A DNA stretch of 64,000 nucleotides. Source: an uncultured Planctomycetota bacterium (GTDB lineage Bacteria > JAJVIF01 > JAPKYR01). The position numbers were made by a program, and so were the translations under genes. The notes beneath the pieces were generated by a model, which searched no databases, was not told the DNA's origin, and worked only from the letters and a program-made list of their open reading frames with translations. Positions 1,143-64,000 of this stretch are shown here, piece after piece; position 1 is the first letter of the stretch, and every line of letters starts with the position of its first letter. The stretch is taken from positions 50,040-114,039 of the forward strand of contig CAYGZQ010000003.1 of the NCBI GenBank assembly GCA_964354375.1. The letters run 5' to 3'.

Positions 1143-3524
1143 ATGCGTTCGAAAGCTGCACCCCTGTTCCTGTTGTGCATTCTGCTGATCCTGCTCGCTT
1201 GTATCGGCTGCTCGCACGGCGGCGCGACGGGGCCGAACCCGTTGACGCCGGGACCGTCGGGCGATCCGAGTCTTCCGAGGAGCGGAGAGGTCCAAACGAG
1301 CCATTCGCTGCTCGGCCTGTATGAGTTCATCGTGGTTCCCGACGTACCTGAGATCAGGACGGTTCCGTTACGGGACGCGATGTTCCATCTGAACGCCCTG
1401 AGATTCCTCGAGCCGCCTCCCCCGGTCAGAATCGTCCTGTCCAACTTCCAGTATGACGGACAGACAGTGGATGTGGACGTGCAGCTCGTTCATCCCTTCG
1501 CCGGACTTCCGCAGTTCACCGGCTTCGATGTGTGCGGAATCGTGATAACGTCCGGAAGCATCTCGGGCTTCAGCGATCCCGATCTTGTTGTCGCGGGGGA
1601 GGGTGACACGAGGCTCTGGAACGCGGACGGTTTCACGCGCTGGTGGAATCCGAGAGAATTCCCCTACAACAGCCAGACCCCTATGTGGGGCTATATCAAT
1701 GGCAACAAGGGCACTCCCGACGAGACGGCGCATTACACGGCCACTTTGAACGGCTTCAAGTACTTTGCGGATGGTCTGGGAGCCGGCGATACTCTGTGGC
1801 TGCTCGACCCGCTTTCGAGGGGGGTTTTCACAGCGGGATCGGCGAATACGCGTCACTACAAGATTAGATTGGGCGCTGGCCTGGTCTTCAACTACGCCGT
1901 CGATGCGTGCTGGCTTCCGCCGGACGAGACCCCGGTTATCGTCCCCGACAGCTTCCCCCCAAGCGCGAATCGCGACGAGCCCTGGCTGTTGACTGTCACT
2001 GTCACCGAGAACACGCTGTACTATGATCCGAGCGCAGGGGCGGGCGGCGGCGAACTCGGTTTGGATATGAGCTGCTACGACTGGTTCGACGCAGATCAGA
2101 ACACCGTCCGTGCGGAATGCCCCGGTGTTTTTCAGCCGACGACATCCAGCGTCCCGGTCGGCGGCAACAGCGTCTACTCAACATACCACGTTGATTTGAC
2201 CAATCCCGTTCTCACTTCGGATGATCCGATTGAGATCTGGGTGTCCGCGGAAGCGGCGATGGACTACGATGGTTTTCTTCCGGGCAAGCCCACCGCGGCG
2301 TACCTGGCTCCTCTGCAGGTTGATGTGGAGCTCCTGACTCCTCAGCAGGGCATCGTGCTGGAGTGGGGACCCGAGGGTGTGATCGATCACGCCAACCGGA
2401 TCGCCAACAATGACATCGATCCGGCAGTCATTGTGGACGGCGACGGTGAGGTCCTGATCGCGTTTGTCTGGTACTACTGGAGCAGTGTCCTTTTCAATCG
2501 TCCCTTGTTCTCCAGGTCAACTGACCAGGGGCACACTTTCAACTATTGCGAACAGGGTTACTGGCAGTCGCACAGTGTCGATGCGGACTGGAAATGCTGG
2601 AACAGCAAGTACACTCTCGGATCGGACGGGCAGGCGTTCCATTCGTATTGGGCGCCGTGCGGACACACGCTCCACAAAGCGCCCTGGGGCGGAACCTATC
2701 CCGATGTGAACGGGGGCTCGCATTCCGGACCGGAAATGGAGCATGCGGGAGAGATGCTCTATACCGCTCAGGGCTATCCGATGATGTTCGGCGACAACGG
2801 CGGCACGATCATCATGCATCGCGGCGATTACCCCAACGTCGCGGGCACCGGAACCTGGCCAGTGTTTCAAGGAACCCCGTACACCCTGGTTGCGGAGGGC
2901 ACCTCCAACTACCTCAGCCTCGCCCGATCCGCAATGAAGACATCCGACGGGCTTTGCCACCTGATCTTCTGGCACGAGGGTCTGCCATACATCAGGATGG
3001 TCTCGACGACCGATATCTCCGGCCAGAACTGGGGAGCCCCGATCCCGGTCTTCGAGGGCCTTGCGGAAATATGGGTCGGGGCGAAGGACCCGAGCCTCTG
3101 GATCGACAAGAACGACGGCTTCCACACGTCGTTGGCCGCCGAGGACTGGATGGGTAACTACCATCTCATGTACGGCTATTCCGCGACGGTCGACGGCTGG
3201 GACGAAGGTGCATTCAAAAATATCATGATAGTCCCCATCGCAGACGGCCTTAACGACACCCATGTCGTCGTCTTTGACGCCTTCGACGAAACCTACGTGT
3301 TCCTGAGTTACGAGACCGCAGGGAATGTCTGGTGCCGATATAAGAAGTTCGAGGAGAGCGAGTTCTCCGACCCGATACAGGTCAACGAGCATTTCCCCGC
3401 TAGGCTTCCGGACATCTATCCCAACGGCGGCACCGGCGCAGTCTTCGTGTACGAGGCTGACGACGGTTCGGGCAAGGACCTGACCGACATCTTTTACCGT
3501 CTGGCTGAATTCAAGGAGGAGTAA
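1143..3524 (+). CDS. Secreted lipoprotein, paralog family member A. Conserved N-terminal domain of unknown function, then an Asp-box (BNR)-containing C-terminal region.
   Basis: Lipoprotein signal MRSKAAPLFLLCILLILLACIGCSHGG; RBS GGAGGT upstream. Shared family motifs: FTGFDVCGIVI, NADGFTRWWNP, NGFKYFADGLGAGD, NTRHY, FNYAVDACW. Asp-box SRSTDQGHTF. Confidence 0.75.
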   Translation: MRSKAAPLFLLCILLILLACIGCSHGGATGPNPLTPGPSGDPSLPRSGEVQTSHSLLGLYEFIVVPDVPEIRTVPLRDAMFHLNALRFLEPPPPVRIVLSNFQYDGQTVDVDVQLVHPFAGLPQFTGFDVCGIVITSGSISGFSDPDLVVAGEGDTRLWNADGFTRWWNPREFPYNSQTPMWGYINGNKGTPDETAHYTATLNGFKYFADGLGAGDTLWLLDPLSRGVFTAGSANTRHYKIRLGAGLVFNYAVDACWLPPDETPVIVPDSFPPSANRDEPWLLTVTVTENTLYYDPSAGAGGGELGLDMSCYDWFDADQNTVRAECPGVFQPTTSSVPVGGNSVYSTYHVDLTNPVLTSDDPIEIWVSAEAAMDYDGFLPGKPTAAYLAPLQVDVELLTPQQGIVLEWGPEGVIDHANRIANNDIDPAVIVDGDGEVLIAFVWYYWSSVLFNRPLFSRSTDQGHTFNYCEQGYWQSHSVDADWKCWNSKYTLGSDGQAFHSYWAPCGHTLHKAPWGGTYPDVNGGSHSGPEMEHAGEMLYTAQGYPMMFGDNGGTIIMHRGDYPNVAGTGTWPVFQGTPYTLVAEGTSNYLSLARSAMKTSDGLCHLIFWHEGLPYIRMVSTTDISGQNWGAPIPVFEGLAEIWVGAKDPSLWIDKNDGFHTSLAAEDWMGNYHLMYGYSATVDGWDEGAFKNIMIVPIADGLNDTHVVVFDAFDETYVFLSYETAGNVWCRYKKFEESEFSDPIQVNEHFPARLPDIYPNGGTGAVFVYEADDGSGKDLTDIFYRLAEFKEE

Positions 3525-3611
3525 CCCTCCGGGGCAAGGCTGCGGGGCTGTTGAAAAAGCCCGATCTGTAGGGGCACGGCATGCCGTGCCCCTGCGTGAT
3601 GCCGCATGAAT

Positions 3612-3636
3612 GGCAGGCTGGAAAGCCTGCCCCACA
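3612..3636. repeat. 25-nt hairpin element GGCAGGCTGGAAAGCCTGCCCCACA (8-bp stem, GGAA loop). This is copy 1 of 2, in the convergent intergenic region together with a second perfect 22-nt palindrome GGGGCACGGCATGCCGTGCCCC.
   Basis: An exact copy is found at 18741..18765. Both sit just downstream of stop codons. Confidence 0.6.
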
Positions 3637-3652
3637 TCCGGATACTCACCAT

Positions 3653-5737
3653 TCAGTATATCCTGCCGATCTCCAGGGATGCGAGAGGGATCAGCGCGGG
3701 GCCGACGGTGTCGAGCCCGCCTGCAATGCAAACATACTGGCCGTCCGTCGCGACCGCAGGCACACCTCGCTTGCGCAGAAGCGAATTGATCGAGAACCAC
3801 GTGTCGTTCTTCACGTCGTAGGCATCGACATTCGGGAGCATCATGGCTGCGCTGCCTCCGCCGAACGTGTAGAACCAGTCGTCGACGATGACAGAGACAT
3901 TCCCGTCGCGACCCGGAATGATCGGCGATCGCCACGCCCATGATTTCCAGCCCGGCTCGTGATAGAGCACGTCCTGTCTGTCAGGATGCCCGCCGCATGA
4001 GATGAGATACCCGTCTCCCGCCGCGAAGCCCATCGTGGATGTCTCGAATTCCAGGTCGGTCTGACCGACGAAATCGGGTCCGGGCGGTGCGAAACTGTAA
4101 GTCTCCTGATGAAAAACCCATGAGGACCCGGTGAAATGCCGTCCCCCGGCGATATAGAATGTGTCCGTCATGAGGGCGCATCCGAGGGTCGCGAGAGGCT
4201 CGGGAAGGGTGGGCGGAGATGGGTCGGGGGTTCCTGTCGCGAGGTCGATCACAAGGCACGTGTCTGTGACAACGGTCTCTGCAAATCGCCCCCCGAAAAG
4301 GTAGGCCTTGCCTCCGAGCGTTCCGCAGCCGAACCCGTCCCGCGGCTCAGGAAGGCTCCAGGGACTGTCCCAGGTGCCCGCATCGACATCGTATCTCTCG
4401 ACAGCATCTAACGCAGTGCCTCCGGCGCTTCCCCCGAGCACCCAGAAATATCCGTCCGCGAAAAATCCCCCGGCATAGCCCCTTGGCGTGGGCATGTTGG
4501 GACCCGCGGTCCACCAGATGTTGGGATGCTCCCCCACTACCGCGCTTTCGAAGTCGACATTCGTCGTCTCGTTCCCGAGCGAATCCTGTGCTCTCAGGCA
4601 TAACGTGTGCAGGACGGGATTGAGACCCTCAAGCAGATAGGGCGGCCCCCCGATTCCGGACACTTTGTTGGCCGTATCGAAATCGAGCGTGTTGCCTTCA
4701 ACCCAGTATAAATTATACGTCACCGGACCATTTGGATCGCTCGCAGTGCCGAAATCGACAAGAATGCCCTGCAAACCCGGCGCGGCACTGATGATACCCT
4801 CATCGGCATCCCATATCGGCGGGTCATGATCCGAAAGGTCGGTCACCTCGACATCAACCCACTGGAAAAGGTGGCTGACCACGAGCTGATCTCTCGCCGT
4901 GATGAGGCAGGGATAGGTTCCGGGAGGCATGCCCAAAACGTTCTCAACCGCGCCGGCCCACAAATCTCCGGACACGTGGGACAACTGCGTTTCCGTTCCC
5001 CCGAGCGCATCCGGCTCGATCGTCACTTTGATCGTGTCGCCCTGCCAGTCCGAGACATACACACTGACCAGGGCGTCGGCACCGGGAGCCATGTCTAGGG
5101 GATCCTGTGCGAAGTCGTGGATGTCGTACGCCTCCGGGCAATGGTCCGGCCAGCTTGCATCGATCGCGTACTGAAGATCGATGAAACCCGCACCGTCCGG
5201 GAAGCCCACGATGTATGTATCGGTGGAGCTTTACAATGGGCCAAGCGCGCGATCAGGGTCCTCGGTCTCGTATGCCCGGAAACCTGCCGGAGTGGCAACT
5301 GTCGGCGGAGCGTACAGGAGAGTGTACGCGTAGGCGTTCTTGAGAACATAATCCCCCAGGGGGTATACGATGCCCCTGACATCGCGTCCGGTCAGCTTCT
5401 TCGTGAAGTTCTTCACCGTCACGTCCGCGGTGACTTCGTGGTTGACCAGATCGAGATTGGTGACAGTGATCTTGAAGCAGTCGCTGCAGTACGGGGGCAT
5501 GAGGAAGTGTGTGACGTCATAGTGCGCTTCCGGCTGACGCGCGGGCACTACACCCACCGATCGGGTTTCCAGATCGATGCTGACATTGAAAATGCCCATC
5601 AGGGCGTGCCCCGATGCCCCCCGCCCGCCGGCCTGCTGCGCCAAAGGCGGGTCGAGAGGACTCGTCCGGTTGCATCCGGACGAGAGGCTCGCGCAAATGC
5701 CGAGCAGGACCGCCAGGGTCAGTAAGTTGTATCGCAT
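3653..5737 (-). pseudogene. Paralog family member D, lipoprotein with a C-terminal Kelch-repeat beta-propeller. It is split by an in-frame TAA at 5233..5231 into ORF 5231..5737 (signal peptide plus the start of the family domain) and ORF 3653..5209 (rest of the domain plus Kelch repeats). Disrupted, or read through.
   Basis: Both ORFs are in the same frame, separated by a single TAA and 7 sense codons. The family domain spans the stop: TGRDVRGIVY before it and LQYAIDASW after it. The 518-aa part has no signal peptide of its own and starts at GTG. Kelch signatures GGFFADGYFWVLGG…W. Confidence 0.5.
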
Positions 5738-5788
5738 ACCAATCCGCCCTCCTTGCGTGTGCTGGATACGCGGTTAGCGTCCGATTAA

Positions 5789-6451
5789 TCAATCTTGCGC
5801 ATCTTTCTCGCGCGACTCATCGATGGAATCCTCCTCCGACAGACCCGGCCCCTCGACGTTGCCGGCTCTCGGTGCGCCGTTCGGAAACCTCTGCTTGAGT
5901 GCCGACGCGAGCGTATGGAGAATGAGGATATGGACCTCCTGAATTCTCTGGGTGCTGTTGCCGGGCACGATGATCGGGTAGCTCACCTGGCTGGCGATCC
6001 TGCCGCCGTGTTTTCCGAGGAGTCCGACAGTGCTGATTTCCTGCTCCCGCGCCCACGCGGCCGCGTAGAAGAGGTTCATCGACTCGCCTGACGTCGATAT
6101 CAGCCAGAGCTGGTCGTCCGGTCTGACGAGCGCACGGACCTGCTGCAGGAAAATGCGATCGAACGAGAAATCGTTGGCGACCGATGTCAGGACCGCGGTG
6201 TCGGTAGTCAGGGACACGGCGGGCAGGGGAGCGCTGTAGTGCTCGAAAGAGCCGACCAACTCGGCCGCGACATGGGACGCGTCGGCGGCGGAGCCCCCGT
6301 TGCCTGCGAAGTAGAGAGTTCCGCCCTGCTCGATCAATGCGATGGATTTCCTGATTGCCCCCGACAGTGGCGGCCAGCAGGCCGTCAGCGCCGCCTCCGT
6401 GTGGGCGATGGAGGAGCGGAACATGTCCTCGATGAGCTGCTGGTACTCCAT
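5789..6451 (-). CDS. gmhA: D-sedoheptulose-7-phosphate isomerase (SIS domain, GmhA)
   Basis: FAGNGGSAADASHVAAELVG, ISTSGES and RIQEVHILILH are collinear with GmhA. It has a short acidic C-terminal tail. Confidence 0.8.
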   Translation of the reverse strand: MEYQQLIEDMFRSSIAHTEAALTACWPPLSGAIRKSIALIEQGGTLYFAGNGGSAADASHVAAELVGSFEHYSAPLPAVSLTTDTAVLTSVANDFSFDRIFLQQVRALVRPDDQLWLISTSGESMNLFYAAAWAREQEISTVGLLGKHGGRIASQVSYPIIVPGNSTQRIQEVHILILHTLASALKQRFPNGAPRAGNVEGPGLSEEDSIDESREKDAQD

Positions 6452-6562
6452 TATCGCTTCCTCATCCCGGTCCCTCGCGTCACAGTCATTCTATTGCGTG
6501 AATGGACGTACGTCAATCGCCCGGAAGGGAAATCGGCCTTTGGAGGTGCGCCGCGTGCCCTA

Positions 6563-6592
6563 AAAAAGTAACGGGCTCTTGTCGAGCCCGTT
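6563..6592 (-). terminator. Rho-independent terminator downstream of the 6642..7352 gene
   Basis: Minus-strand hairpin AACGGGCTCGACAAGAGCCCGTT followed by ACTTTTTTA. Confidence 0.5.
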
Positions 6593-6641
6593 GGAAAGAC
6601 CGTCTAGTTGACAACTACACGGTACAACCCGTGTTCCGGGA

Positions 6642-7352
6642 TCACTGGGGATCCCAAATGCCGGCCACACCGTCAAAGAAGACAATGTCGAGAAGCCCGA
6701 AGTAAACGGGCGCACTGATTCTGACCGTAGTAACATCCAGCCCCGGAATCGTTCCGGACGGGATGTAGTACGTATCGTTCAGAACCTGGTAACCGGGCGA
6801 GATCACCCCGCTCCAGTTGTAGATCGGGTCGCCAGGCATCAGACCGCCCGGGACTATCTCACCGTACTGACCATAAGACGCATAATGCATCTCTGCGGTC
6901 ACTTCGGCAACCGATCCGAACCCACCAGGACCGCCGATATTGAACCAGAGGAGCGACAGTATGTTGATGTCATAGTCGACCGTCTGGCCGATATAGTAGT
7001 ACGGCAGACCGGCGTTCGGGCCCGTGAGAATCGTACCCGCAGGGTTGTTGTAAGTCACCCAGCAGTTTATCAGGCCGAGAGGAATCAGGTTGATGTCAAC
7101 CTGAGCACCGCGGTTCTCGATCACGTAGAACCCGTCGTCGTTTCGACCCAGAGTCCCTTGCGCCAGAACATTGCCCTGGAGATCAGTGTAGGTGTACTCA
7201 CCTACGATGGGGCTCGACAGGTCGAAGGAGTTGAAGAACTGCTCCATCGACTGATTGCCCTTGTCAGGTGCGACTGGGTTGGAACCGTTTGAGCAGCCGA
7301 CGCCGATCATGAACACGGCAACAGCTGCAAGTGCCAACACTTTTCTTAGCAT
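6642..7352 (-). CDS. Hypothetical lipoprotein
   Basis: Signal MLRKVLALAAVAVFMIGVGCSNGS; RBS AGGAGG upstream; no recognisable domain. Confidence 0.65.
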   Translation of the reverse strand: MLRKVLALAAVAVFMIGVGCSNGSNPVAPDKGNQSMEQFFNSFDLSSPIVGEYTYTDLQGNVLAQGTLGRNDDGFYVIENRGAQVDINLIPLGLINCWVTYNNPAGTILTGPNAGLPYYYIGQTVDYDINILSLLWFNIGGPGGFGSVAEVTAEMHYASYGQYGEIVPGGLMPGDPIYNWSGVISPGYQVLNDTYYIPSGTIPGLDVTTVRISAPVYFGLLDIVFFDGVAGIWDPQ

Positions 7353-7611
7353 GCTTTGCCTCCTTTCTTGTAGAATGCAAACAATGGAAAAAGCGTTACC
7401 TGTTACTGTCGTGCTCGGAGACCTTTCAAAGCACTCCGCCTGACTGCAGCCCTTATCTCAAAGTGCCCACAACGAGGACAAATGGTAGCATTCCCCGAAA
7501 GAAAAATCAACATTTGAATGAGGATTTAATGCAATCTGACACGATAATTTTACATGGGCCGAGACTGCGTTCCCGAGTGGTTCGAGTCTTTCCCCGGCCG
7601 TGAGCCTTCAT

Positions 7612-10284
7612 TCAGTATATGATTACGGCGATCTCGTCAACCCGGGGTCGCGCGTGCGCGTCCGGCGTAGCGCCGCTTCCAAAGCCGATCGCGGCCCTTA
7701 CACGTCCGATACCGTTCGGGTCCAGGTCTGCCAGGCGATACCTCGCCCAGTTGAACGGCCAGCCATATTCATTCCGCCCCCAGCCATATCGATCGTTGTA
7801 CGTGGCGGGGGTCTCGTCGAACCTGACGTTATTGTTGTTGTAGTACTGCGCGGTATAGTACGGGGTACCCTCGATGTAGTCGGCGGGACGGGCCTCACTG
7901 TATTCGTAGTAGTATTGCTGTTTGTTGTGCAGGCTCGGATCGTCGGGGACAGTGCCGACGCTCAGTCGGGCGTAGTTATCCCAGCATTCGTTCATCGGCG
8001 TCACCTGGGCGCCGAAAATCAGCTCTATGTACCATTCCTGCGTCGTTGCGGCTAAGGCCGGATCGGTCAGTATGGGCAGCGGGGGCGATGCGATGACACT
8101 CCAGATGTGCTGCCGCATATAGCCGGAGTCCGGGTCCATCATCCAGCATCCCCCGGATACTGCGCCACCGTATCCGGGTCTCTCGAACTGCCTGTAGAAC
8201 GCCTGCTCATTTCCGCCGTACCCCATGGTCCACGGGAACTTGTCCTGCGAGGCGCCGTCCGGCTCCGCGTTCTCGAGCTCGATGAACGCCCACTCGGTAG
8301 AGCCGACACTCTCGGAGTTCTTGTTACCCGCGACCGACCGGGCTTTCACCATGAAGTAATACGATCCTCCGCTGTTGTATGCGCTCTGCCCGCTCAGCAG
8401 GTTCAGGCATGACCAAACCTCCGGCGGAGTTGTCCCTATCTCTTTCCAGTTTTCCTGGTCGTCGTGAGGATCGCCGTCCCGGTATACGGCCCACTCGGCC
8501 ACAACCCCCGACACCTGGCTTCCGTCCCACCTCACGACTATCGCCGGTATATCGCTAGGGTTATTTATGTACTCGTAAGAATGAAGCGCAGTGCGTTTCA
8601 CCGAAAGCTCCAGATTCAACCCGGACGTGGGGAACTCCGGCGGGTCAGGCAGCTTGACATCCACCATCAGCGAAGCCTCGCTGTATCCGAAGGTGCCGTT
8701 CAGGTCTTTCACTCTGGTATCCACCGCATAGGAGCCCTCATCCGGGAAGCAGATGTCGATAGAGCCGTTCCCGAACGGGTGAATAGCGTCTATGTTTCCC
8801 GTCCCGTCGTTATACTCGGGCGGTGAGTCGTCTCCTATCTCCCAGGCAAAGACAAGGTCTTCGTTCAGGTCCTGGCAGTCGTAGTAGTTCTCGACGTTAT
8901 AGGTATGCACCTCGCCGGCTGTTACCTCGATCGGACCTGTGACAGGCCCCAACTGCGGCGGAGAGTTCGTACCTACATATGGCTCGTACACCTGGTAAAG
9001 GGCCAGGGGCGCATCTTCAGAGCCCTCGAACGATATCGGTAGTTCTTCAGGGCCCACTGTATAGCTTCCGAGGGGGCTGGTTGCCGCCACCAGCACCAGG
9101 GGGTCGTAGGTCTCGAAATTGTCCGGCACCAGCTCGGCGGTGAATGTCGAGATGTGAGCAGAATAGACATCCGAGCCTCCGACCTCCGTGGCGGGCACGA
9201 AATCCACGCCCAGGTCCGGCGATCCGATAAGCACCTGGTCGATCCCACCTGCTCCCTGCCACGTCGAGACATCGATCCTGACCTTCAGCACTCCACCGGA
9301 TACCGGGCAGTCCTCCAACTGCGGGTCGAAATAGAGTGAGTTAGCCTCTTCGTAAATGTCGATGTTAAAGGGCTCGAGGGAGTTGGCCGAGATCGGGAAG
9401 TCATCGAAGGACTGCGGGGGGATGTTGGCGGGTCGTTCCCAGCTTGCATCGACAGCATAATTGAAGACCATGAAGTCCGCGGCGGCAGGACCGAAATTCA
9501 GGGAGTAATGGCGGCGATTGGTGGACGAGCATGAGAAGCGACCCCGTCCAACCAGAACCAGGGGCTCCATGACCTCGTCGTTCGCACCCAGTCCGTCGGC
9601 GAAGTACTTGTAGCCGTTCACCGTGCTCGTGAAATGTGCGGCCTTGTTCGGCTTGCCCAGAAGCCCGTCCTTGTACCCGAGAATCCCGCCGCCGGTGAAT
9701 TCCGTGGGATTCCACCATCGCGTGTAACCGTCCGCGTTCTCGAGCCTGGTCTCGTCCGCTCCGGGCAGGACCAGGTACTCGCCGAGCAGGTAGTTCTCCC
9801 ATGAACCCCTGGAGATGACGATCCCGCGAACGTCGAAGCCGGTGTACTCGGGATGGCCCGGTAGAGGGTGCTGCAGGATTATGTCCAGAGATACTTTGCC
9901 TTCGGGAACATCGACTTCGAGCGTCTTCGGATCATAGGTCAAGTATTTGAGCATGACCGGCTCGAGGAGCGAGACGACATTCAGGTGCGCCGAGCTCTCT
10001 CGAAGGGGCACGATCTCAACCGTCTTCGTTCGGAGGTCCACCTGGAACCGCCACATGCCCCACAGGACGCGGTTTCCGCCCCCGATTTCGCCTTGGGATG
10101 TAAGCCGCATCCGATCGATGCCGGATGATGGATCGGGTACTACCGGGGGTGTTTGTCCGCAGCCCGGAAGCAACAACGCTGCGACCAAGAGGAGCGCTGC
10201 GGTAGCCGGCAGATGATTCGTCTTGGTTCTCATGATTCCTGAGGCCTTCCTGACGGGTTGGGACGCATGGCGACCCTCAAACAA
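7612..10284 (-). CDS. Secreted protein, paralog family member B (conserved N-terminal family domain plus a long C-terminal region)
   Basis: N-terminal hydrophobic signal. Motifs YTGFDVRGIVI, NADGYTRWWNP, NGYKYFADGLGAND, NRRHY, FNYAVDASW match the other three members. Confidence 0.75.
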   Translation of the reverse strand: MFEGRHASQPVRKASGIMRTKTNHLPATAALLLVAALLLPGCGQTPPVVPDPSSGIDRMRLTSQGEIGGGNRVLWGMWRFQVDLRTKTVEIVPLRESSAHLNVVSLLEPVMLKYLTYDPKTLEVDVPEGKVSLDIILQHPLPGHPEYTGFDVRGIVISRGSWENYLLGEYLVLPGADETRLENADGYTRWWNPTEFTGGGILGYKDGLLGKPNKAAHFTSTVNGYKYFADGLGANDEVMEPLVLVGRGRFSCSSTNRRHYSLNFGPAAADFMVFNYAVDASWERPANIPPQSFDDFPISANSLEPFNIDIYEEANSLYFDPQLEDCPVSGGVLKVRIDVSTWQGAGGIDQVLIGSPDLGVDFVPATEVGGSDVYSAHISTFTAELVPDNFETYDPLVLVAATSPLGSYTVGPEELPISFEGSEDAPLALYQVYEPYVGTNSPPQLGPVTGPIEVTAGEVHTYNVENYYDCQDLNEDLVFAWEIGDDSPPEYNDGTGNIDAIHPFGNGSIDICFPDEGSYAVDTRVKDLNGTFGYSEASLMVDVKLPDPPEFPTSGLNLELSVKRTALHSYEYINNPSDIPAIVVRWDGSQVSGVVAEWAVYRDGDPHDDQENWKEIGTTPPEVWSCLNLLSGQSAYNSGGSYYFMVKARSVAGNKNSESVGSTEWAFIELENAEPDGASQDKFPWTMGYGGNEQAFYRQFERPGYGGAVSGGCWMMDPDSGYMRQHIWSVIASPPLPILTDPALAATTQEWYIELIFGAQVTPMNECWDNYARLSVGTVPDDPSLHNKQQYYYEYSEARPADYIEGTPYYTAQYYNNNNVRFDETPATYNDRYGWGRNEYGWPFNWARYRLADLDPNGIGRVRAAIGFGSGATPDAHARPRVDEIAVIIY

Positions 10285-10529: not shown

Positions 10530-12767
10530 TCAGCCTGGGTTGCCCTCGGTCTGATCGAGCAGGTTGTTTCCCTCCTCGTTGGGAGCTCCTTCCTGAGGCG
10601 GAGCGGTGGGCTGAAGTAGCCTCGACTGCTCATCGATCGCAGCCTGGCGTTCCTGCTCGGCCTGTTCCTTCCTCGCCGTCAGCTCGTCGACCTTCTTCTG
10701 TACGGTGTCTCTCAGCTGGCTGAGCTGATCCCGCATCTGCTGGGTCAGAGGACCGTTTGGCGCCGGAATCGGCACCTCCGGCACCAGGACCTCCGTTGCG
10801 TCCGACGATTCACCGGCGACCGAAGGCTCGGTTCCGGCAGAAGACGTATCGATATCGGCCCCATCGGCGGCGGAGCCTGTCAGCCCTTCCGACTGGCCTG
10901 CGGAAGCAGCCGGGGTCTCGGTCGTTTCCTCTTTGGCCTTGTCGATCAAGGCAATGAACGGGGCGTCAAGCGACTCAAGCGTCAGACCCATCTCATCTTC
11001 CGGCAGCACCGGGTCGGTCCAGGCCTCCGGGCGCACTCCTCCGGCGAGCTCGAGCGCCCTGTCATCGAGACTGATCATCTGGTTCAGCACAGACACGACT
11101 TTCTGCTCAAGCTCGAAATCCTCGCTTGAATACTCATGGGCAAGGCTCAGGTCGGAAATGTCCCTGGCCATGAGCTGCTGCCGGGCGATATCAAGCTGAG
11201 CCCGCTGCCAATGAGCGAATGGAGCCATGTCCTCGAGCTCAAGGGAGCGGTCTATGTTCTTCAGCGCGATGGCGAAGAAGCCCTGTTCTTGCCTCTTGAG
11301 ATCTTCCGGGAGCTCGGGGAACGTTCCTCCGAACGCTTCCGGGTTTGCCTGGAACTGAGCCCAGATGTCCTGCATCCATTTTCCCTCAACTCTGAAAGCT
11401 CTCGTGGCCCAGAGGTTGGCCGCGAGGTAGCGCAACCGCGCTTCGCCCATCTCCACCTCTACTCGGTTATCGAGTGCGACATCAAGCTTGGCGGCGTTTG
11501 TCCTGAGCGCTTCCTGGTAGTCGGCGGCGGCCAGGTCCCATTTCTCGTTGATGACATGATGCATGGCGCGAATCTCGGGATCGTAGATGACGATCTTCAT
11601 CGTCGCCTCGTCCGCCCTCACCGCCTCCGATACCCGCTGCATCGGATCCTCGGCCTTCAGGTACAGGACTCTTATGGTCGCTTCCTCGTAGTCGGCGATC
11701 ACTTCCTCGTCTGTGACAACAAGGTTCCCCTCGGCAGGCAGCTCAAGCTCGCCCGCCTCCACTTTCTTTCTCTTCTCCTCGAGCAGTTTCTGCCTGATCC
11801 CTTCCTTGGCGGACTCCCAGTCGGGACCGCTGGCGCCTGTCCTGCTCAACACTGTCACGAGCCATGCACCCATGTAGTCCGGCTGGTTGGTCGTGATCGT
11901 GAGACTGGTCTCCCCCACGGGAAGGCTGAAAGCGCTGTCGATGACGGCTTTCGGGAGATCCTTGGAGTCATGCCTCACCATCGGCACCAGTCCGCCCGCT
12001 TCGCTCGAGGATGCGTGCTCCGAGTACTGCTTGGCAGCGTCGGAAAACGGCAGTCCGCCCACAATCTCTCCCCGGATAATGTCGCACCGAGCCGAGAGCT
12101 CCGCCATGATCTCGGTTTCCTTCTGCTTCGAGATCGTTGTCACGTACTGCTGAGCCGTCAGAGTCTGGCGAATGATTCTGCGAAGTCGGACGAGAGAGTT
12201 GGTCGGATCGTACTGCTTCAGCTTCATCTCGAACGCCTTGTCTTCCTTGGCGGAGGTGAAGAGGTCGGCGATTCGCTGAAGGATGCTCTTCGAGCCGGCC
12301 GACTCGACCTGAGGCATGAGCTGGTTGCGGTACTCGTTGACTTTCTCCTCGACCTGCTCGTCCGTCACCGTGATGCCGGTTGCAGCGGCCTTGATGTCGA
12401 AGTACTCCATGTCGATCATCTGACGGAGCGTCGAATACTTGACCGAAGCCGTCCATTCCTCGGGGTGCAGCACAGCCTCGCTGGAGGACTCCTGCCTCTT
12501 GAGCTGCGCGTCATAATCCCGGTAGAAATCCTCGTACGTGATCTTGTGATCCTGGATGGTCGCGATGGCATCGCCGGGACCGGTTGTTTGCGATCCGGGA
12601 CCCTGCTCCCTCTGGTTTGCGCATCGCGATCCGCCGAAGCTAAGGCTCCCGCCGAACACGAGCGCGAGACCCGCGATTATGTATGCTATTCGGATCTTGT
12701 CGGGGTCTCTGAGAGTCGCAACGAGACCCTGTCCTCTTACTTTTCGACGACGTTTCTTACTGGCCAT
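10530..12767 (-). CDS. PpiD/SurA-like periplasmic chaperone (N-terminal membrane anchor, degenerate parvulin-like domain, E/Q-rich C-terminal tail)
   Basis: Basic N-terminus then a TM segment (IAYIIAGLALVFGG). The AGGLVPMVRHDS…FSLPVGETS segment resembles a parvulin domain. Overall architecture resembles PpiD. Confidence 0.45.
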   Translation of the reverse strand: MASKKRRRKVRGQGLVATLRDPDKIRIAYIIAGLALVFGGSLSFGGSRCANQREQGPGSQTTGPGDAIATIQDHKITYEDFYRDYDAQLKRQESSSEAVLHPEEWTASVKYSTLRQMIDMEYFDIKAAATGITVTDEQVEEKVNEYRNQLMPQVESAGSKSILQRIADLFTSAKEDKAFEMKLKQYDPTNSLVRLRRIIRQTLTAQQYVTTISKQKETEIMAELSARCDIIRGEIVGGLPFSDAAKQYSEHASSSEAGGLVPMVRHDSKDLPKAVIDSAFSLPVGETSLTITTNQPDYMGAWLVTVLSRTGASGPDWESAKEGIRQKLLEEKRKKVEAGELELPAEGNLVVTDEEVIADYEEATIRVLYLKAEDPMQRVSEAVRADEATMKIVIYDPEIRAMHHVINEKWDLAAADYQEALRTNAAKLDVALDNRVEVEMGEARLRYLAANLWATRAFRVEGKWMQDIWAQFQANPEAFGGTFPELPEDLKRQEQGFFAIALKNIDRSLELEDMAPFAHWQRAQLDIARQQLMARDISDLSLAHEYSSEDFELEQKVVSVLNQMISLDDRALELAGGVRPEAWTDPVLPEDEMGLTLESLDAPFIALIDKAKEETTETPAASAGQSEGLTGSAADGADIDTSSAGTEPSVAGESSDATEVLVPEVPIPAPNGPLTQQMRDQLSQLRDTVQKKVDELTARKEQAEQERQAAIDEQSRLLQPTAPPQEGAPNEEGNNLLDQTEGNPG

Positions 12768-13077: not shown

Positions 13078-16000
13078 ATGTGTTATCTTCCTCGCGCCGG
13101 CGTCTTGGCCTTTATTCTTCTGATTTCCCTGTCGTTTGCCTGTGATGAAAGGGGCTTGCTTTCTCCAGAAGCGCCTTCAGTCAGGTCGGATCGGGGGGCG
13201 GCTGAGGAACCGCCGGAAGTCGATTGCCCCCCTGACCCCTAGGTCCCCGTTGAGCCTGAGCCTCGTCCTCAGCATTGGAGCGGTCCATGGCCGTTGTATC
13301 GATACCGATTCGAACCTGAGATTCCGATAGAGGAGCCATACATCCCGCCGAATCCACCCGAACCGGATCCATATATCGATGGGTCTGCTGCCGTGAGAGA
13401 GACGGTGCCCGGCATCGTGGAGCCTTCTCAGGGACTCGAGCCGGCTCCGATGCCACAGTACATCCCCGCGCCGCTGTCTACGGCGCCCTGTGAAGACCTC
13501 AACCCGGATTGCGATGCTGCCGATCCCAATGGCGACCCTGATGGCGATGGATTGCCGAATCAGGAGGAGCCTGATAACGACAACGACGGAATACCCGATG
13601 AAATGGACCTGGACTGTCTGATGGCGGGCGCTTGCGATAATCCGGGGAGCCCTGAATACGAAGCTTGCCACGATGATCCGGATGATCCTGATGATGATGA
13701 CGATGGAATACCGGATGAATTCGACCCCGACTCGATAGACTCCGATGCCGACGGCATCGTAGACATCTGTGAGGATTACTGCGATCCTGAAGACAAGGCG
13801 GCAGGCTACTGGGACTTACTTCACGAGTGTTTAGGCTCGTGGGAGGGCCAAGACGAATGGACAAATGATGAGGATTGTGATGGCGTCCCCGACCCATACG
13901 AGGATTGGTGGGATAATCGCGACACTGACGGCGACGACATACCCGATGTAAGCGATCCAGACGACGACAACGATGGTAGACCGGACGACGATGACGACGA
14001 TGACGACGGCGATGGCATACTGGATGTGGCGGACCCGGACGGCGACTGTGATAACGACGGGATTCCGAACCTCTACGACTGCGAGTCTCTATGCTACACC
14101 GGGCCTACGTGTTGTTGCCGGGCCGAAGGCGTTCTCCAGCCAAAGATATGGTGGCCGGGCGAGTTCAAAGAAATGAGCGAGTTTGACTACCTGGAGGTGA
14201 TATTCATCAATTTCGGCGTTATAGATCATTGCCCCCCCTGCTACGAGTTAGGGCCCTTCCCCCCGCCAAGATACCGCGTCTTCTTGTTTCTGAACGACGT
14301 TTTGGAGGCCGTATTCAGCACCGACGAGACGGAGACAAGAGTGCTCCCCGTTGCCGTATACCGCCGTGATGCGGCGCGCAATGTGCTTGGCAAATTCGTA
14401 GACGGGCAGAATGATCTTAAGCTAATAATCGAAGACCAGTGCTGCAAGAGAGTATTGGGCATTCAGAAGGATTTCACAGTGAATGCCACGGTCTCTTACA
14501 GAGTCAAGCCATACAGAATGACGTATATTGACCGTGCGGAATTCCCGGCTGGTTATGTGAATAACCCCCTTTATAACATGCAGGGGTTCGCCGGACAGGG
14601 CCAGATACACCAAACGGATCGTTATCAACATGTGTCTTTCAGCCTCCAGGACGAGCTGCCTCACTACTCCGTTTACCTTTCACCCGAATGGTATGAGGGC
14701 TGCGCCCCAAAGGATACCTTCGCGGCTTACAGGATGGGCTCCCAAGTCGGCGTTAAAGTGGATTTCTATAGCCCGGGGACTTACGCAGCCAGCGATCACC
14801 TTTTTCTCCTCCCCTACCAGGTAGCAGGTCTGGGACCACTGCAACTCTACGCAGAAGCCCACATGGTTGTCGTTAACCGACAGAACCCAGGCGTTGTCAA
14901 ACAAGGGACTATGAAGCCTGACAGTTCGTACGGCTATGATGTGGGCCGCCAGCTTCGCCTTATCCGTTGGGATGACGACGACAGAGTGAACGCGGACGAT
15001 ATTCTGAGCGCCCGATGGATTCTTCCCTCTCCGACATTCGATGGCGTGAACGCTTGGTACGACTTCCAGAATGGACAGATCATCGGCAACAAGGTTGAAT
15101 TCACTTACTACGCCGGCGGTGTGTCGTGGGGACCTCCGGCTAATGGCGGAATTATAGAAGAATTCAGGTTCTTCACCTCATACGCCCAGAACTGGACCTC
15201 TAGATCTCATCTCTGGCCGACTGATTTCGCCCTCGAGATGGTCGGACGCTATGCAAGCGGACTGACTAACCCGCAACAGATAATGACTGCAGTTACGGCG
15301 AGAATGCGAGGCCCGAACAACGTCTGGACCAGCGAGGTGAACGATCTGAGTAATGTTACCCTGGACTATGACACAACCCAGCCCGGAAGTTATGACCCGT
15401 ATAGGGCGTTTGATGAGCTTCACGGCCCTCCGGTGGACTACATAATTTATCATTTGGAATGTGACGACTATGCTAACATCCTCACAAGATTCATGCGTGA
15501 CCAGGGCATAGACGCGGAGTCATGGTATGTGTCCGCAGGTCATGACTGCAACCAGCATCCGGGGGGACTGACTAAGAAGGAAAGGGTACGCATGTGGATG
15601 TATGCTCCCGGTGATCCCGGTGATCCCAATCCCCCGGCTTCTCCTCCTCCTTTATACAGACATCCCCCATGGCAGGCCGGATATCTACCGCGGAATGAAC
15701 ATTGGCCAATCGTTTATAACGACTTGCAGTGCTTAGACGGCGCCACGGACACGTGGGGATTTAGGTTCCATCAGGTATGCGAGTACGACGACGACATCTA
15801 TGACCCTGTGCTCTATGATGTGCAGAAGGGGATTGTGCCGTGGGACCAATACAAGCAAGACTACCTGAGTATTTGGGATCGCACGTGGGATATTCCTCCG
15901 CCTCCTTTTCCCCCAGTCCCCGGTGACCCGTGGGTCGACTGCCTCATGTTCAAGCTGCCTTACCCCTGTGCGTACGGGGTCGCTGACGAGGAACACGAAG

Positions 16001-16182
16001 GGCTCAAATCTGTGCTACAGGTAGGTGTTGAGGATCGCGACTATGTGTACAGAATCAAGCACAGCGGGTATCGCTATCCGGATCCTAACCCTGAGTCCAA
16101 TCACCAGTACGTTGTTCCCCATTTCTACATTTGGAACTGGGAGCATCCGATGGATGGGTGGCAACAACGGTTGGACCCATAA
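13078..16182 (+). pseudogene. Lipoprotein with ~20 thrombospondin-type-3-like Ca-binding repeats and a C-terminal domain carrying a transglutaminase-like Cys motif. The reading frame is broken by an in-frame TAG at 13240..13242. Disrupted, or read through.
   Basis: ATG at 13078 encodes MCYLPRAGVLAFILLISLSFAC (lipobox). TAG lies 54 codons in. The same frame continues …PPDP*VPVEPEPRPQ…YRYRFEPEIPIEEP… into ORF 13294..16182, which starts at TTG and has no signal peptide. Repeats of DPDGDGLPNQEEPDNDNDGIPDE type. C-terminal LECDDYANILTRFMRDQGIDAESWYVSAG matches the transglutaminase Cys region. Confidence 0.5.
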
Positions 16183-21800: not shown

Positions 21801-22687
21801 CCGCTGCCGAGCTCCTCCAGGACCTCGTAGCGGTTGTCCACGATCTCTCCCGCGAGGCTCCCCTCGGGTCGGGCCTTCTTGAAGCTGACCGCCGCCAGGG
21901 CGTACGCGACCGCCTCCTTGAACTCCGTCAGCGATGCGTAGCGCTTGGACGGATTCTTCTGCAGCGCCGCGATGAGAATCTCCTTTACCGCCATCGGAAT
22001 CTGCTTGTAGTACTCGATGTGCGGGGTGGCGTCGACATACACCTGCTGGTACCGGACCTTGGCGACATCGCTGTCATGGAAAAGCGGGAAACCCGTCAGC
22101 ATGTGATAAAGCACCATCCCGATCGAGTAGATGTCGGCCGCCTGCGTGATCTCTCCAATCCTGTGGATTTGCTCGGGTGATACGTACTTCGGGTCCTCCC
22201 ATCTCTTCCGCGGCTCCTCGTCCATCATCTCCATCGCTCGACCGACATACCAGTCGGCAAGCTTCACGTCGGTCAGCTCGTCATTAACAAGTATATTGTT
22301 CGGTTTGATCGCCAGGTGCGGGGGAAGTCCGATGTTGTATCCCGTTTCCAGCGCCTCGATCACTTTCAGCGTAATCGACAAGGCGCTGGTGAGGTCCACG
22401 GTCTCGTTCTCGATCAAATATTCTTTCAGGCTCATCGGCAGGAACTCGGTCGCAATCTTCATTCGGTCCGAATGCCTGCCGACCTCCCATACCGGCACCA
22501 GGTTGGGATGCTTGATCGTGCGAAGATTGTTCGCGACATTCTCGCATTCGTCGATGAACCCCTCGTGGACTCCGTAGGGTTCCTTGAAGATCTTTACGCA
22601 TGCCACGCGCGGGTCTTTGGGGTCTTTCCCCTTGTATACAAGGGCCGCTTCACTGCCTCGTATGCGGTCTACGGGTTCAAAAGGCAT
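18818..22687 (-). CDS. Multidomain signalling scaffold: three tandem kinase-like domains lacking catalytic residues, a degenerate PP2C-like domain and C-terminal TPR repeats
   Basis: Start is at the internal ATG 22687, which has an AGGAG RBS; the ORF-track extension to 23065 lacks support. Catalytic-loop equivalents are HLAIKPNN, HGALRPEH and YGRLSPES (no Asp). DFG equivalents are ADW, DFR and GFE. PP2C-like segment is LYLAKVGACFAYLLR…GDVLIVGTSDLG. TPR examples AYMEEGMYDKAIAEFQKGLEIKPDN. Confidence 0.8.
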   Translation of the reverse strand: MPFEPVDRIRGSEAALVYKGKDPKDPRVACVKIFKEPYGVHEGFIDECENVANNLRTIKHPNLVPVWEVGRHSDRMKIATEFLPMSLKEYLIENETVDLTSALSITLKVIEALETGYNIGLPPHLAIKPNNILVNDELTDVKLADWYVGRAMEMMDEEPRKRWEDPKYVSPEQIHRIGEITQAADIYSIGMVLYHMLTGFPLFHDSDVAKVRYQQVYVDATPHIEYYKQIPMAVKEILIAALQKNPSKRYASLTEFKEAVAYALAAVSFKKARPEGSLAGEIVDNRYEVLEELGSGQFSGLYKALERGRDKFVAIKFYDDKLSREEDFIRAINKDLYGRAQLKHPHVVDLIAQGWHKNQYYVVETHVTSSLAAVLEDRKKLAPEQALRIIRKVLATLSYLKTKGSLEAHGALRPEHILINPRGDEVLLKDFRLHETERFIRKTYGVPPTGYQYASPEVWLDEDDVPVDQRSDIYALGGILFRLVTGDFLFDGLPQDIFDAHIKTEALAKIQERYEIPLVFHDIMIKMLEKDPLQRYQSYDDLADDIDHLIGSADSGINIHLIDQGTTIKGKYRLEERLTNIGGAYGLSPEKDLVLYAGTHLGTDTPVMLWFYRVPKTHELDEAWNGRMKLAAEYEHPGLIRVLDHGRDKGAYFFVSELRTHTLADYVAEYGPMSEGYAVEVGRLIAEALIYLRAEGFEVYGRLSPESAFVVSKPQLKVKLSGFERDVFYDTPMKLNRAEYLSPEQITGLGEQTGASDVYAWALVIYYLITGHDLFHGEPHEISAMHVYEDPRERLEATGISVDLRRILERALRKDYTARYSSWGELIEDLDDYQASAAAAEIEESILSFIPGNSSYLAMVSTEEEAPPEEESRMTFAQRYPPSSIGIRGAFGVASGISPQVDEALRCADLALREAEQVYSYSSLSRLDILEDPNQLAISAMQRANGIVNQEAFRLNKIGSIGAELLIASISQNRLYLAKVGACFAYLLRSATIRTFMKRGDEKRMLGKELTVQVETAERHLRAGDVLIVGTSDLGRVLSDVEIRNCVTSTIDTQEACERIISLAGSRYKGAGSSIKESMACVVIQFGDVGETQRIFPGRFPAAPVIHHYVTKGTAYMEEGMYDKAIAEFQKGLEIKPDNFSLNFQLAQAYKDKGQLELALRHCQKSLDLFPGFAEGHIRMADILYERGNKDKAREEYELAVATAPNSAEAHVAIGSYYFREALYTQATREFAKALDCDPHNAQAKANFEMAKSRATSIGGAVAESASKVVHGIRRPFSFRKQPKKKKRR

Positions 22688-22837
22688 CAAACACTCCTGC
22701 GGAATGGTGTACCCACATCCGTCCGAATGATTATACCATTCAGACGCTTTTGAGGGCGCAAGTGTTCCCGACATATGGCTGTCGCGTAGCATGCGCGGGG
22801 TGGGGCTGTTGAAAAAACCTGTTTCGATGCCGAATCG

Positions 22838-23075: not shown

Positions 23076-23113
23076 CTGGTGGCTGTAAAAAAAATTTCAG
23101 GAGAGGAAAGAAA

Positions 23114-47302: not shown

Positions 47303-48124
47303 ATGGCCACCCGATATTTCATAGCGTTGTCCGTGGTGTTGGCCGGTATCGACCAGATTACCAAGTATCTCGCGATCAGGCTGGTCGATTTCGAGAGGCT
47401 TGAGGCGCTCCTGTCCGGCCAGATCAGTCCCGAGCGGAACGAGATTATCCCCGATTTCTACTACCTGACTCTGACGTTCAATAAGGGCATCGCCTGGGGC
47501 ATGCTTCCCGAATGGAGCGAGTACTTCACCTACTTCGCCATCATCATGGTGCTCGTCATCCTGATGATCCTGAGGAAGCTGGATCGTGACGAGGTCTGGC
47601 TGAAGATAGCGCTCGCGTTCCAGATGGCGGGCGCGATCGGCAACATGTCCGACCGTCTGATTCACCACAGGGTGACCGATTTTGTCGATGTGGTCCTTTT
47701 CCCGGGCACGAGATGGCAGTACGACTGGCCGATTTTCAATCTTGCCGACAGCTTCGTGGTAATCGGGACCGTCGTCCTTGTGCTGGTGCTGGTTTTCGCG
47801 AAGGAAGCCAGACCTGAGCCTTCCGAGGTGCAGGCGCAGCCCGTTTCGGGCGACCTTTCCGCACTGCCTGCGAGCGGCGCCTGGGAGAGTGTCGAGAGGC
47901 TCCAGGGCAGCGTGCCGACTGAGGAGGGTCTTGTCGAGATACCGGCCGAGTCGCGCTCCGAGATGCTCGCCCCCTTCGAGGAAGCTGCGTTTCGGGCGGA
48001 AGAGATCGAGGAGCCGCTTGGCACCCGTCCGCCTGCAGGCGACGAGAAGGTTCACGAGCCTGATTCGGTGGTTGATCGCGACAAGCTGGACGAGTTGAGC
48101 AAACGTCCCGAGCGGGATGAGTAG
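47303..48124 (+). CDS. lspA: Lipoprotein signal peptidase II with a ~100-aa acidic C-terminal extension
   Basis: GIDQITKY, FNKGIAWG and FNLADSFVVIG motifs; 4 TM helices. Confidence 0.8.
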   Translation: MATRYFIALSVVLAGIDQITKYLAIRLVDFERLEALLSGQISPERNEIIPDFYYLTLTFNKGIAWGMLPEWSEYFTYFAIIMVLVILMILRKLDRDEVWLKIALAFQMAGAIGNMSDRLIHHRVTDFVDVVLFPGTRWQYDWPIFNLADSFVVIGTVVLVLVLVFAKEARPEPSEVQAQPVSGDLSALPASGAWESVERLQGSVPTEEGLVEIPAESRSEMLAPFEEAAFRAEEIEEPLGTRPPAGDEKVHEPDSVVDRDKLDELSKRPERDE

Positions 48125-62865: not shown

Positions 62866-64000
62866 ATGCCTGATGGAAGAACCGTGAAGACATTGGAGCG
62901 TGCTCGACTTTCCAGTTTCCTTATATACGCTCTATTGCTCATCTTCCTGTTGCCCGGCTGCGGAGGCAAGGGAGCCGGCGATGTTACCGCTCCCGCGACG
63001 GACAAGAATCCATCCACGGACGGACCTCCCGCGCTTACCGCCGCAATAGACTATCCGCCTTCGGTTCCAGGGCAGGTCGGTGGTAAGGCGTCCTGGGGAC
63101 TGTGGGACATCGCCCTCGACCGCGAATCCGGGTTCCAGGTCGTTCCCTTGAGAGGTGTCGAGTATTCGCTTAATGTCAACACCTTCCTGCAGCCCCCCAT
63201 GGGCAGTCTCGCGAACCTCCAGATCAATGTCGTCAACATGGAGAAGCTCTTCATCGCGGGCGATGTCACCGTGGATGTCTCGATCAGCCATCCCTTCCCG
63301 GCGGCTTCCCAGTTCACCGGCTTCGATGTTCTCGGGGTGATCATAGGCAAGGGTACCTTCGTTGCCAACTCCGACATCGGCATCGTCTTTGCCGACCCTC
63401 ACAAGAATCCTGTGTTGAAGAACGCGGACGGGTACACGCGCTGGATGAACCAGCTTGAGTTCACGACGGAGGGCTTACGGGGCTATACAGAGGGTGCCAG
63501 GGGGAAGAAGGGCCAGTTCTGGAATTCGTCCCTCAACGGTTACAAGTACTTCGCGACTAACCTCTATCCCACGGAATCGATCGTCGAATTCTACCAAAGC
63601 TCGTCCATGGTCTCTCAGCGCGGGATGTTCTCCACCAATGCGACAAACACGAGGCGATACGATCTGCATTTCCCGATGGTCGGGGGCTTTCCGGACGTGC
63701 GGTTCCAGTACGCAGTGGTTGCGAGCTGGGTCGAGCCCGTCAACATTCCGCCCCACAATCTTCCGGGGGATTTCCCGGCCGCCGCAAACATGCAGGAGGC
63801 CTTCCATTGCGAGATCTCCACGGTCGGCAGCAGCCTTTACTGGAACAACATGTACGACAACGGCGGAGACCTTTTCCTCACCCTGGAGATTTTCGACTGG
63901 CAGGGCATGACGAATCTCTCCGGCGTCGCGGGCGAGATCAAGCAGGTCACCCTTGACAGCCCGGACGAGTTCATCAACAACGGCAGCAAGATGGTGTTCG
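62866..64000 (+). CDS. Lipoprotein, paralog family member C (N-terminal family domain); 3' end runs off the window
   Basis: MPDGRTVKTLERARLSSFLIYALLLIFLLPGCGG lipobox. Family motifs FTGFDVLGVIIG, NADGYTRWMNQ, NGYKYFATNLY, NTRRY, FQYAVVASW. Not in the ORF track because no stop lies inside the window. Confidence 0.7.
   Translation, partial: MPDGRTVKTLERARLSSFLIYALLLIFLLPGCGGKGAGDVTAPATDKNPSTDGPPALTAAIDYPPSVPGQVGGKASWGLWDIALDRESGFQVVPLRGVEYSLNVNTFLQPPMGSLANLQINVVNMEKLFIAGDVTVDVSISHPFPAASQFTGFDVLGVIIGKGTFVANSDIGIVFADPHKNPVLKNADGYTRWMNQLEFTTEGLRGYTEGARGKKGQFWNSSLNGYKYFATNLYPTESIVEFYQSSSMVSQRGMFSTNATNTRRYDLHFPMVGGFPDVRFQYAVVASWVEPVNIPPHNLPGDFPAAANMQEAFHCEISTVGSSLYWNNMYDNGGDLFLTLEIFDWQGMTNLSGVAGEIKQVTLDSPDEFINNGSKMVF

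Follow-up and report, generated by a model that had tools for sequence, protein, structure and literature searches.

A predicted lipoprotein family with a conserved N-terminal base and variable C-terminal heads, expanded in a deep, uncultured diderm lineage

A stretch of 64,000 nucleotides from an uncultured bacterium deposited as Planctomycetota (contig CAYGZQ010000003.1, positions 50,040 to 114,039; hereafter the window) carries four genes that raise a simple question: do they encode lipoproteins built on a common N-terminal domain and, if so, what does this domain do? A preliminary description of the window, made from its letters alone, had answered the first part positively. It reported four paralogous lipoproteins sharing a collinear domain of ~200 amino acids (aa) that it could not assign, each fused to a different C-terminal module. 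All four open reading frames (ORFs) exist, and three of them do lie within 10 kb. Gene A (1143..3524, + strand) encodes 793 aa, and gene B (3653..5737, - strand) is a shorter type of member with 694 codons, one of which is a stop. Gene C (7612..10284, - strand) is an 890-aa ORF starting at a TTG codon, and gene D (62866..>64000, + strand) runs past the window end. The lipoprotein-type signal announced for the four genes was also confirmed, each product starting with a signal peptide that contains a lipobox cysteine: Cys20/23 in A (LLAC/IGC), Cys22 in B (SSGC), Cys32 in D (LPGC) and Cys42 of the TTG ORF in C (LPGC). The last corresponds to Cys25 if translation of C starts at the ATG at 10233, which is the more probable start and would give a protein of 873 aa beginning MRTKTNHLPATAALLLVAALLLPGC.

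We compared the four products by BLASTP and with a hidden Markov model (HMM) of the family. A and C are 39% identical over ~360 aa (6e-56), and the A-D and C-D pairs gave E values of 3e-37 and 1e-53. The family HMM recognised A, C and D with E values ranging from 1e-104 to 1e-152 (6.6e-152 for A, 6.5e-125 for C and 1.3e-104 for D). The significance of the alignment between members, on which the preliminary description had made its claim depend beforehand, was therefore found by both methods for A, C and D. These alignments identify the three proteins as unambiguous paralogues sharing ~350 collinear residues. The shared region is thus longer than the ~200 aa initially reported, and consists of a domain of 230 aa followed by a beta-sandwich of ~100 aa. 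The six motif blocks attributed to the domain were all present in A, C and D, but three were absent in B, whose similarity to the other proteins was weak (E 1e-6 to 1e-11) and whose match to the family HMM covered positions 1-136 alone (E 1.5e-18). Searching a six-frame translation of the window with the family HMM revealed no copy beyond A-D.

The architecture of the shared unit was defined on an alignment of 80 members (A1) and on a trimmed alignment of the N-terminal domain (N-domain; A3), from which residue numbers are taken. The order is always the same: lipobox, tether of ~27 residues, beta-rich domain of ~230 residues and weakly Ig-like sandwich of ~100 residues. We call the two conserved domains together the base, and the variable C-terminal module the head. 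The lipobox cysteine column is at least 90% conserved in A1. Among 226 complete N-termini, a lipobox was found in 218, with a serine at position +2 in 169, and the Pro/Gly/Ser-rich tether measured a median of 27 residues from the cysteine to the domain start. Fifteen positions are invariant in A3 (N30, H67, P68, D79, G82, D113, G114, F124, G135, R175, F178, R186, Y204, N229 and E232), among which about nine are polar (N30, H67, D79, D113, R175, R186, Y204, N229 and E232), in paralogues that are merely 35-45% identical. An AlphaFold2 model built with the family alignment was confident (predicted local distance difference test, pLDDT, 83.9; predicted template modelling score, pTM, 0.81). It comprises a loop-rich beta domain (residues ~22-250) and a compact beta-sandwich (residues 254-345). 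The most conserved motif, NADGYTRWWNPxEF, sits in this model in a long stretch devoid of regular secondary structure.

In gene A, a regular expression placed the signal peptide, the lipobox and a Pro/Gly-rich tether at 1143..1304 (+), and alignment A3 placed the N-domain (aa 55-280), which has no Pfam or NCBIfam match, at 1305..1982 (+). The second conserved domain of A follows at 1983..2342 (+; aa ~281-400). Its limits are approximate, as the A-C similarity extends to about aa 373 and the HMM match to about aa 408, and its predicted beta-sandwich fold is taken from the AlphaFold2 model of the homologous part of C. In gene C the N-domain (model residues 20-252) and the weakly Ig-like beta-sandwich (model residues 254-345) occupy 9370..10068 and 9091..9366 (-), respectively, and in gene D alignment A3 located the N-domain (aa 75-312) at 63088..63801 (+). 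The head of D falls outside the window.

How widespread is this base? The preliminary description had proposed a profile search of metagenome proteins, and this search returned 1,952 representatives of 50%-identity clusters with an E value of 1e-3 or better among 1.84 billion proteins, 1,141 of them scoring 1e-30 or better. The domain started at residue 1-80 in 150 of the 150 matches listed which, together with the lipobox count given above, bears out the description of a conserved N-terminal cassette placed in front of varied C-termini. The family is real, the statistical support for it is overwhelming and its architecture is well defined. In a collection holding one genome per GTDB species, tblastn confirmed at least 457 copies. 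The best 79 loci came from ten metagenome-assembled genomes (MAGs) deposited as 'Planctomycetota bacterium' or '(uncultured) bacterium'. The domain was encoded by 127 ORFs in these loci, a few of them split, and tandem arrays reached five ORFs within 12 kb. Two MAGs carried at least 42 and at least 35 family ORFs. Three members (L058:4502-6954, L061:5842-7596 and L065:5681-8077) were each broken at the N-domain into a pair of neighbouring ORFs. Such cases correspond to frameshifts, stops or assembly errors, and suggest frequent pseudogenisation or an error-prone assembly in the tandem arrays.

These counts agree with the view of the preliminary description that the family is lineage-specific. 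It occurs solely in a deep lineage of uncultured diderms, where tandem duplication has expanded it massively. The depth of this lineage is apparent from the Tgt protein encoded at 49151-50323 (+), whose 60-73% identical relatives were found solely in MAGs deposited as 'bacterium', the next named matches being only ~50-53% identical (Hydrogenedentota, Fimbriimonadales and Desulfovibrio). The phylum label therefore warrants caution, and from these identities the name 'Planctomycetota' given to some of the related MAGs may be insecure. The window also contains, at 28886-38002 (-), a flagellar P-ring/rod cluster (FlgI, FlgA, FlgG and FlgF-like) beside a PKD/Big_9 lipoprotein and an 880-aa secretin, which indicates a diderm envelope. 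LspA (signal peptidase II), the enzyme required for the processing of such lipoproteins, is encoded at 47303..48124 (+; Pfam Peptidase_A8, E 1.1e-33), in the same window as four of its presumed substrates, and no Lgt gene was seen in the window. Since LspA, FlgI/FlgA and a secretin are all encoded there, the organism should be a diderm possessing a lipoprotein pathway.

We next asked whether the N-domain belongs to a known family. The window proteins, searched at E values up to 1, and the 80 members, searched at E values up to 0.01, gave no match to the N-domain in Pfam, NCBIfam or PHROGs. The families that were matched in the 80 members (PKD, propeller repeats, PrcB and others) were those also matched by the isolated C-terminal parts. 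No match was obtained when a profile of the N-domain was compared with all PDB chain sequences, using two alignments and E values up to 1 and up to 10. The preliminary description had further suggested a structure prediction followed by a fold search. Foldseek retrieved nothing from the PDB with an E value of 1e-3 or better for the modelled N-domain, the template modelling scores being at most 0.2, and our literature search did not find a description of this lipoprotein family. The domain is thus as unassignable as first reported, and within Pfam, NCBIfam, PHROGs and the PDB it may represent a new domain family, possibly with a new fold.

The heads behave quite differently from the base, with a mean column identity of 8% among the C-terminal parts of 79 members. 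At least ten Pfam families, mostly propellers, were identified as C-terminal partners. The commonest types were LVIVD (15 members) and PQQ_2 ('BamB'), with Beta-prop_ACSF4, PQQ_2 and PQQ found in 8, 8 and 5 members, Beta_propel in 7 and PKD in 4. SBBP or LipL53-like modules occurred in 3-4, and BNR_2, PD40, strictosidine-synthase-like, beta-helix, thioredoxin/redoxin, PrcB and Kelch modules were also detected. The preliminary description had spoken of binding or hydrolytic cargo; the heads that could be identified are binding-type scaffolds and do not support the hydrolytic part of this statement. A distinct subfamily of 390-400 aa stops right after the second conserved domain and has no head at all, indicating that the base can stand alone as a complete protein. 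In 23 of the 28 proteins of this subfamily, the closest relative by N-domain falls in the same length class, and grouping by N-domain is also seen for the classes of ~700-900 aa and ~1,150 aa. It follows that heads and bases, once joined by occasional fusions, diverge together and are not shuffled.

Gene A illustrates a propeller head. Its C-terminal region (2352..3521, +) is predicted to fold as a 7-bladed beta-propeller and carries exactly one strict Asp-box (STDQGHTF, aa 459-466). This Asp-box had been correctly noticed, and no Pfam BNR match was obtained. Proteins of the BNR/sialidase type have repeated Asp-boxes (S-x-D-x-G-x-T-W) on a 6-bladed propeller and match Pfam BNR. With a single Asp-box and a 7-bladed model, a sialidase reading of this head is not supported. 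Between A and its orthologue (P0166, 96% identical, on a syntenic contig), identity reaches 96% in the propeller, 91% in the N-domain and 86% in the second domain. This comparison led us to reject diversifying selection on the heads, which appear instead to be under purifying selection. In C, whose orthologues in L001-L004 are 54-69% identical, the variable region of ~490 aa (7615..9084, -) resembles PKD/FN3 by eye and has homologues (P0203, 62% identical, P0111 and P0151). It gave no Pfam match, including in the parts first described as long Ig-like regions.

Gene B required a separate analysis, as an in-frame TAA codon at 5231..5233 (-) had been missed. Its N-domain (5123..5608, -; aa ~44-205) retains the LMG.F..D...VP.R, DVRG and YAIDASW blocks and lacks the NADGYTRWWNP, NGYKYFA and NT/RRHY blocks. 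We considered that B might be a decayed copy of the long type, and rejected this explanation. B aligns collinearly across its stop with three members encoded in other genomes, L022, L079 and L034 (E 2e-32 to 1e-15), with which it forms a conserved short-type subfamily. They have in common a PPxCxDC motif (PPYCSDC in B) and the absence of a central insert of ~55 residues. In a close relative, contig L080 (95% identical in nucleotides) conserves the gene order A orthologue, B orthologue, SIS-domain gene. The B orthologue (L080:2806-4890) is intact, with 694 aa and a GAA codon at the stop position, so that the TAA of B is explained either by one G-to-T nonsense mutation, which would be very recent, or by an error in the sequencing reads. 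Identity between B and this orthologue is uniform along the gene (91-93%), hence without sign of long-term decay. Reassignment of the stop codon was rejected as well, given the GAA of the close relative and the use of TAA to terminate other genes here. The Kelch repeats reported for B were confirmed by a C-terminal beta-propeller (3656..4504, -) matching Pfam Kelch families with E values of 1.3e-17 to 1e-9. These matches exceed the Pfam gathering score (64.3 bits for PF24681, with a cut-off of 50, in addition to Kelch_1, 3, 4 and 6), and matches to these families, graded weak or faint, were also obtained with the L080 orthologue.

The results so far establish that the members are homologous, how they are built, how large and expanded the family is, that known relatives are lacking and that propellers serve as heads. 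The question becomes what the base does. From the lipobox, the tether and the conserved residues we infer lipidation, a location in the envelope and binding by the base. After export, the proteins would be lipidated and cleaved via Lgt and LspA, and would then hang from an envelope membrane. The base would perform one function common to all paralogues, most likely binding to a shared envelope component or glycan through its invariant polar and aromatic loop residues (HP, FDV.G, NADGYTRWWNP.EF, RG.F, R.Y and AN.PE), and each head would contribute its own ligand specificity. We tentatively favour this reading, in which a lipid-anchored base binds a common partner and the heads provide specificity, and give it slightly less than even confidence. 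The preliminary description had suggested surface display, sorting or docking to the cell envelope. Such roles are compatible with the architecture and plausible, but they probably make the base too passive. Its occurrence without a head in one subfamily and its invariant polar residues suggest that it possesses a binding or catalytic site of its own, and on these two grounds it should be more than a passive display or sorting tag.

Several points weigh against binding by the base to a shared partner. The proteins may sit on the inner membrane, on the periplasmic face or on the outer face of the outer membrane, the ligand of the base is putative, and the clustering of the invariant residues into one site is assumed. 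No conserved partner gene was found beside family members in the 79 loci, where the largest 'neighbour' cluster consisted of the propeller halves of members cut by the locus ends and of other LVIVD proteins. A relative of the domain may exist among predicted structures, or a remote relation to a Pfam family may be detectable by HHsearch. Finally, the invariant set of His, Asp and Glu fits a catalytic or metal site equally well.

This last point leads to the alternative that survives best, although we consider it unlikely, namely that the N-domain is an enzyme (hydrolase, lyase or transferase) acting on a polymer of the envelope or of the environment, with heads that target the substrate as carbohydrate-binding modules do on glycoside hydrolases. 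An invariant His, two Asp, a Glu, two Arg and a Tyr are kept in divergent paralogues, the base occurs alone as a complete protein, and the domain is 35-45% identical among paralogues against ~15% for the heads, all of which would suit an enzyme. However, neither its sequence nor its predicted fold resembles catalytic families in Pfam, NCBIfam or the PDB, and it would be unusual for a genome to encode the same catalytic domain dozens of times. Moreover, the short subfamily, including the intact orthologue of B, replaces the invariant His and deletes ~55 residues, and is nevertheless maintained.

The base might also act as a sorting or export tag, recognised by a lineage-specific machinery that flips lipoproteins or delivers them to the cell surface. 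Its logic would be that of Slam substrates, of the lipoprotein export signal of Bacteroidota or of PE/PPE N-domains. The strictly N-terminal position of the domain, its strict coupling to a lipobox and the presence of a single conserved module ahead of many unrelated cargos are what such a tag would predict. A folded unit of 350 residues is nevertheless big for a signal, head-less members carry no cargo, and no conserved transporter gene was present in the 79 loci, which makes this explanation quite improbable in our opinion. We give little credence to a third possibility, that the base is an inert stalk or spacer lifting the head off the membrane, as proposed for BACON or Ig-like N-domains of Bacteroidota surface lipoproteins. 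The base is indeed placed between tether and head and its second domain is a plain beta-sandwich, but a pure spacer is hard to reconcile with the head-less subfamily and with the invariant polar residues. As for a conflict system (polymorphic toxins or antigenic variation), which tandem arrays, a constant N-terminus with diverse C-termini and some copies that are split or contain stops (B, L058, L061 and L065) might have evoked, it is largely refuted already and very improbable, since the C-termini are propellers, PKD and similar binding scaffolds rather than toxin domains, no small immunity-like ORFs lie downstream, heads are better conserved than the base between orthologues, and N-domain subfamilies track head type, leaving no room for cassette shuffling.

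We then looked for known systems to which binding by a lipid-anchored base could be compared. Surface lipoproteins of Bacteroidota (BACON; SusE/SusF) similarly combine a lipobox, a conserved N-terminal beta domain and variable binding or catalytic modules, and they exist as many paralogues per genome with a presumed role in presenting binding modules at the envelope. No Pfam match to BACON or SusE/F domains was found in the window proteins or in the 80 members. BACON is an Ig-like domain of ~80 aa, whereas the N-domain described here has ~230 aa, is loop-rich and contains many invariant polar residues. No linkage to a SusC/D-like transporter was found in the 79 loci, and the lineage also differs from Bacteroidota. 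A second resemblance is to spirochaete lipoproteins. Some heads match NCBIfam Lepto_SBBP_lipo (3 members, 6.5e-16; the Leptospira LipL53 family) and others denti_PrcB or Pfam PrcB_C (5 members, 2.4e-14; the dentilisin complex of Treponema denticola). The likeness concerns the heads alone, besides the lipoprotein nature, as the spirochaete proteins do not have this N-domain, and such heads occur in none of the four window genes, that of D being outside the window. These Bacteroidota BACON/SusE/F-type proteins and the spirochaete propeller or partner lipoproteins would be the nearest functional analogues.

Other comparisons are more distant. BamB is the textbook lipid-anchored PQQ-type propeller, and lipoproteins of the BamB, LVIVD and PQQ types use, as here, a lipid-anchored beta-propeller as a scaffold for binding proteins or ligands. 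In BamB the propeller directly follows the lipobox and the gene is present in a single copy per genome, whereas here a base of 350 aa intervenes and there are dozens of copies. Slam-dependent lipoproteins have a C-terminal 8-stranded barrel and an adjacent gene for Slam (DUF560), an outer-membrane protein. Neither trait was found, the C-termini being propellers, PKD and similar modules and the 79 loci having no conserved neighbour. The sole TPR_Slam match in the window was below threshold and lay inside a kinase-TPR protein. A protein of 1,415 aa encoded at 18818-23065 (-) has numerous TPR repeats after three stretches with protein-kinase matches, which represent two or more distinct kinase domains. 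The PE/PPE proteins of mycobacteria form a large paralogous family with a conserved N-domain and highly variable C-termini (PMC11395111, PMC3411574). They are a conceptual analogue alone, since their fold is helical and not beta, they use type VII secretion and not lipoprotein processing, and there is no homology. In none of the comparisons made here did the N-domain qualify as a member of a known group.

The genes adjoining family members were also inspected. Gene E (6642..7352, -), which encodes a lipoprotein of 236 aa outside the family and without Pfam match, follows C on the same strand after ~260 bp. In another MAG, the C orthologue is likewise followed directly by an orthologue of E (56% identity; L004:2825-3604). 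Gene E is therefore the sole local exception to the absence of conserved partner genes, and C and E may form a conserved gene pair or operon. On its other side, C adjoins a gene (10530-12767, -) for a 745-aa SurA-like peptidyl-prolyl isomerase with SurA_N and rotamase domains and a long acidic tail, and this neighbourhood is retained on a contig of the LacPavin MAG (L003:1774-4128). Just upstream of D, at 59997-62543 (+), are found an S8 subtilase with its own lipobox (…AAALSSCGG) and then a lipoprotein of 193 aa. PrcB is the lipoprotein partner of the Treponema dentilisin subtilase, and by analogy with the PrcB heads of five members elsewhere, a functional link between this subtilase and D is possible.

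Four large ORFs of 760-960 aa without Pfam match, at 13294-16182 (+), 44102-46387 (+), 53988-56369 (-) and 57082-59790 (-), do not contain the N-domain and gave no BLAST match to the heads of the family. The one at 44102 has a lipobox and a Gly/Gln-rich tether, and the one at 13294 has a GC content at third codon positions of 0.61 versus ~0.75. Elsewhere in the window, a 333-aa ORF (42574-43575, +) apparently fuses IspF (YgbB, 2-C-methyl-D-erythritol 2,4-cyclodiphosphate (MEcPP) synthase) to a C-terminal RNase H-like domain (RVT_3 / RNase_H), a combination that may be uncommon, and 23066-26222 (+) contains tandem paralogous genes for B12-binding radical SAM proteins of 517 and 518 aa.

The preliminary observation was thus essentially right, with corrections concerning B, the length of the conserved unit and the Asp-box. 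What is new is a family of modular envelope lipoproteins whose base is absent from the libraries searched. With ~2,000 clusters at 50% identity, yet no Pfam or NCBIfam entry and no structural relative in the PDB, the N-domain stands out as a clear candidate new domain family that merits both a domain-family entry and a structure. Expanded lineage-specific families of surface proteins are common, so that expectations are not overturned, and the family does not by itself open a long-standing question. A bolder version, which we regard as doubtful, is that the N-domain is a new fold serving as a lineage-specific docking or export module, which would recognise a shared envelope partner or machinery and allow the cell to mount dozens of different propeller 'receptors' on its surface. 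If true, this would represent an independent invention of modular surface-lipoprotein display, with a role comparable to that of Sus-like or Slam-dependent systems. In any case, a constant base, many heads and a head-less form provide a natural experiment that helps to separate the role of the base from that of the heads. Members of the family probably account for much of the envelope proteome in this poorly known lineage, and what they do is therefore relevant to substrate sensing or capture by these organisms.

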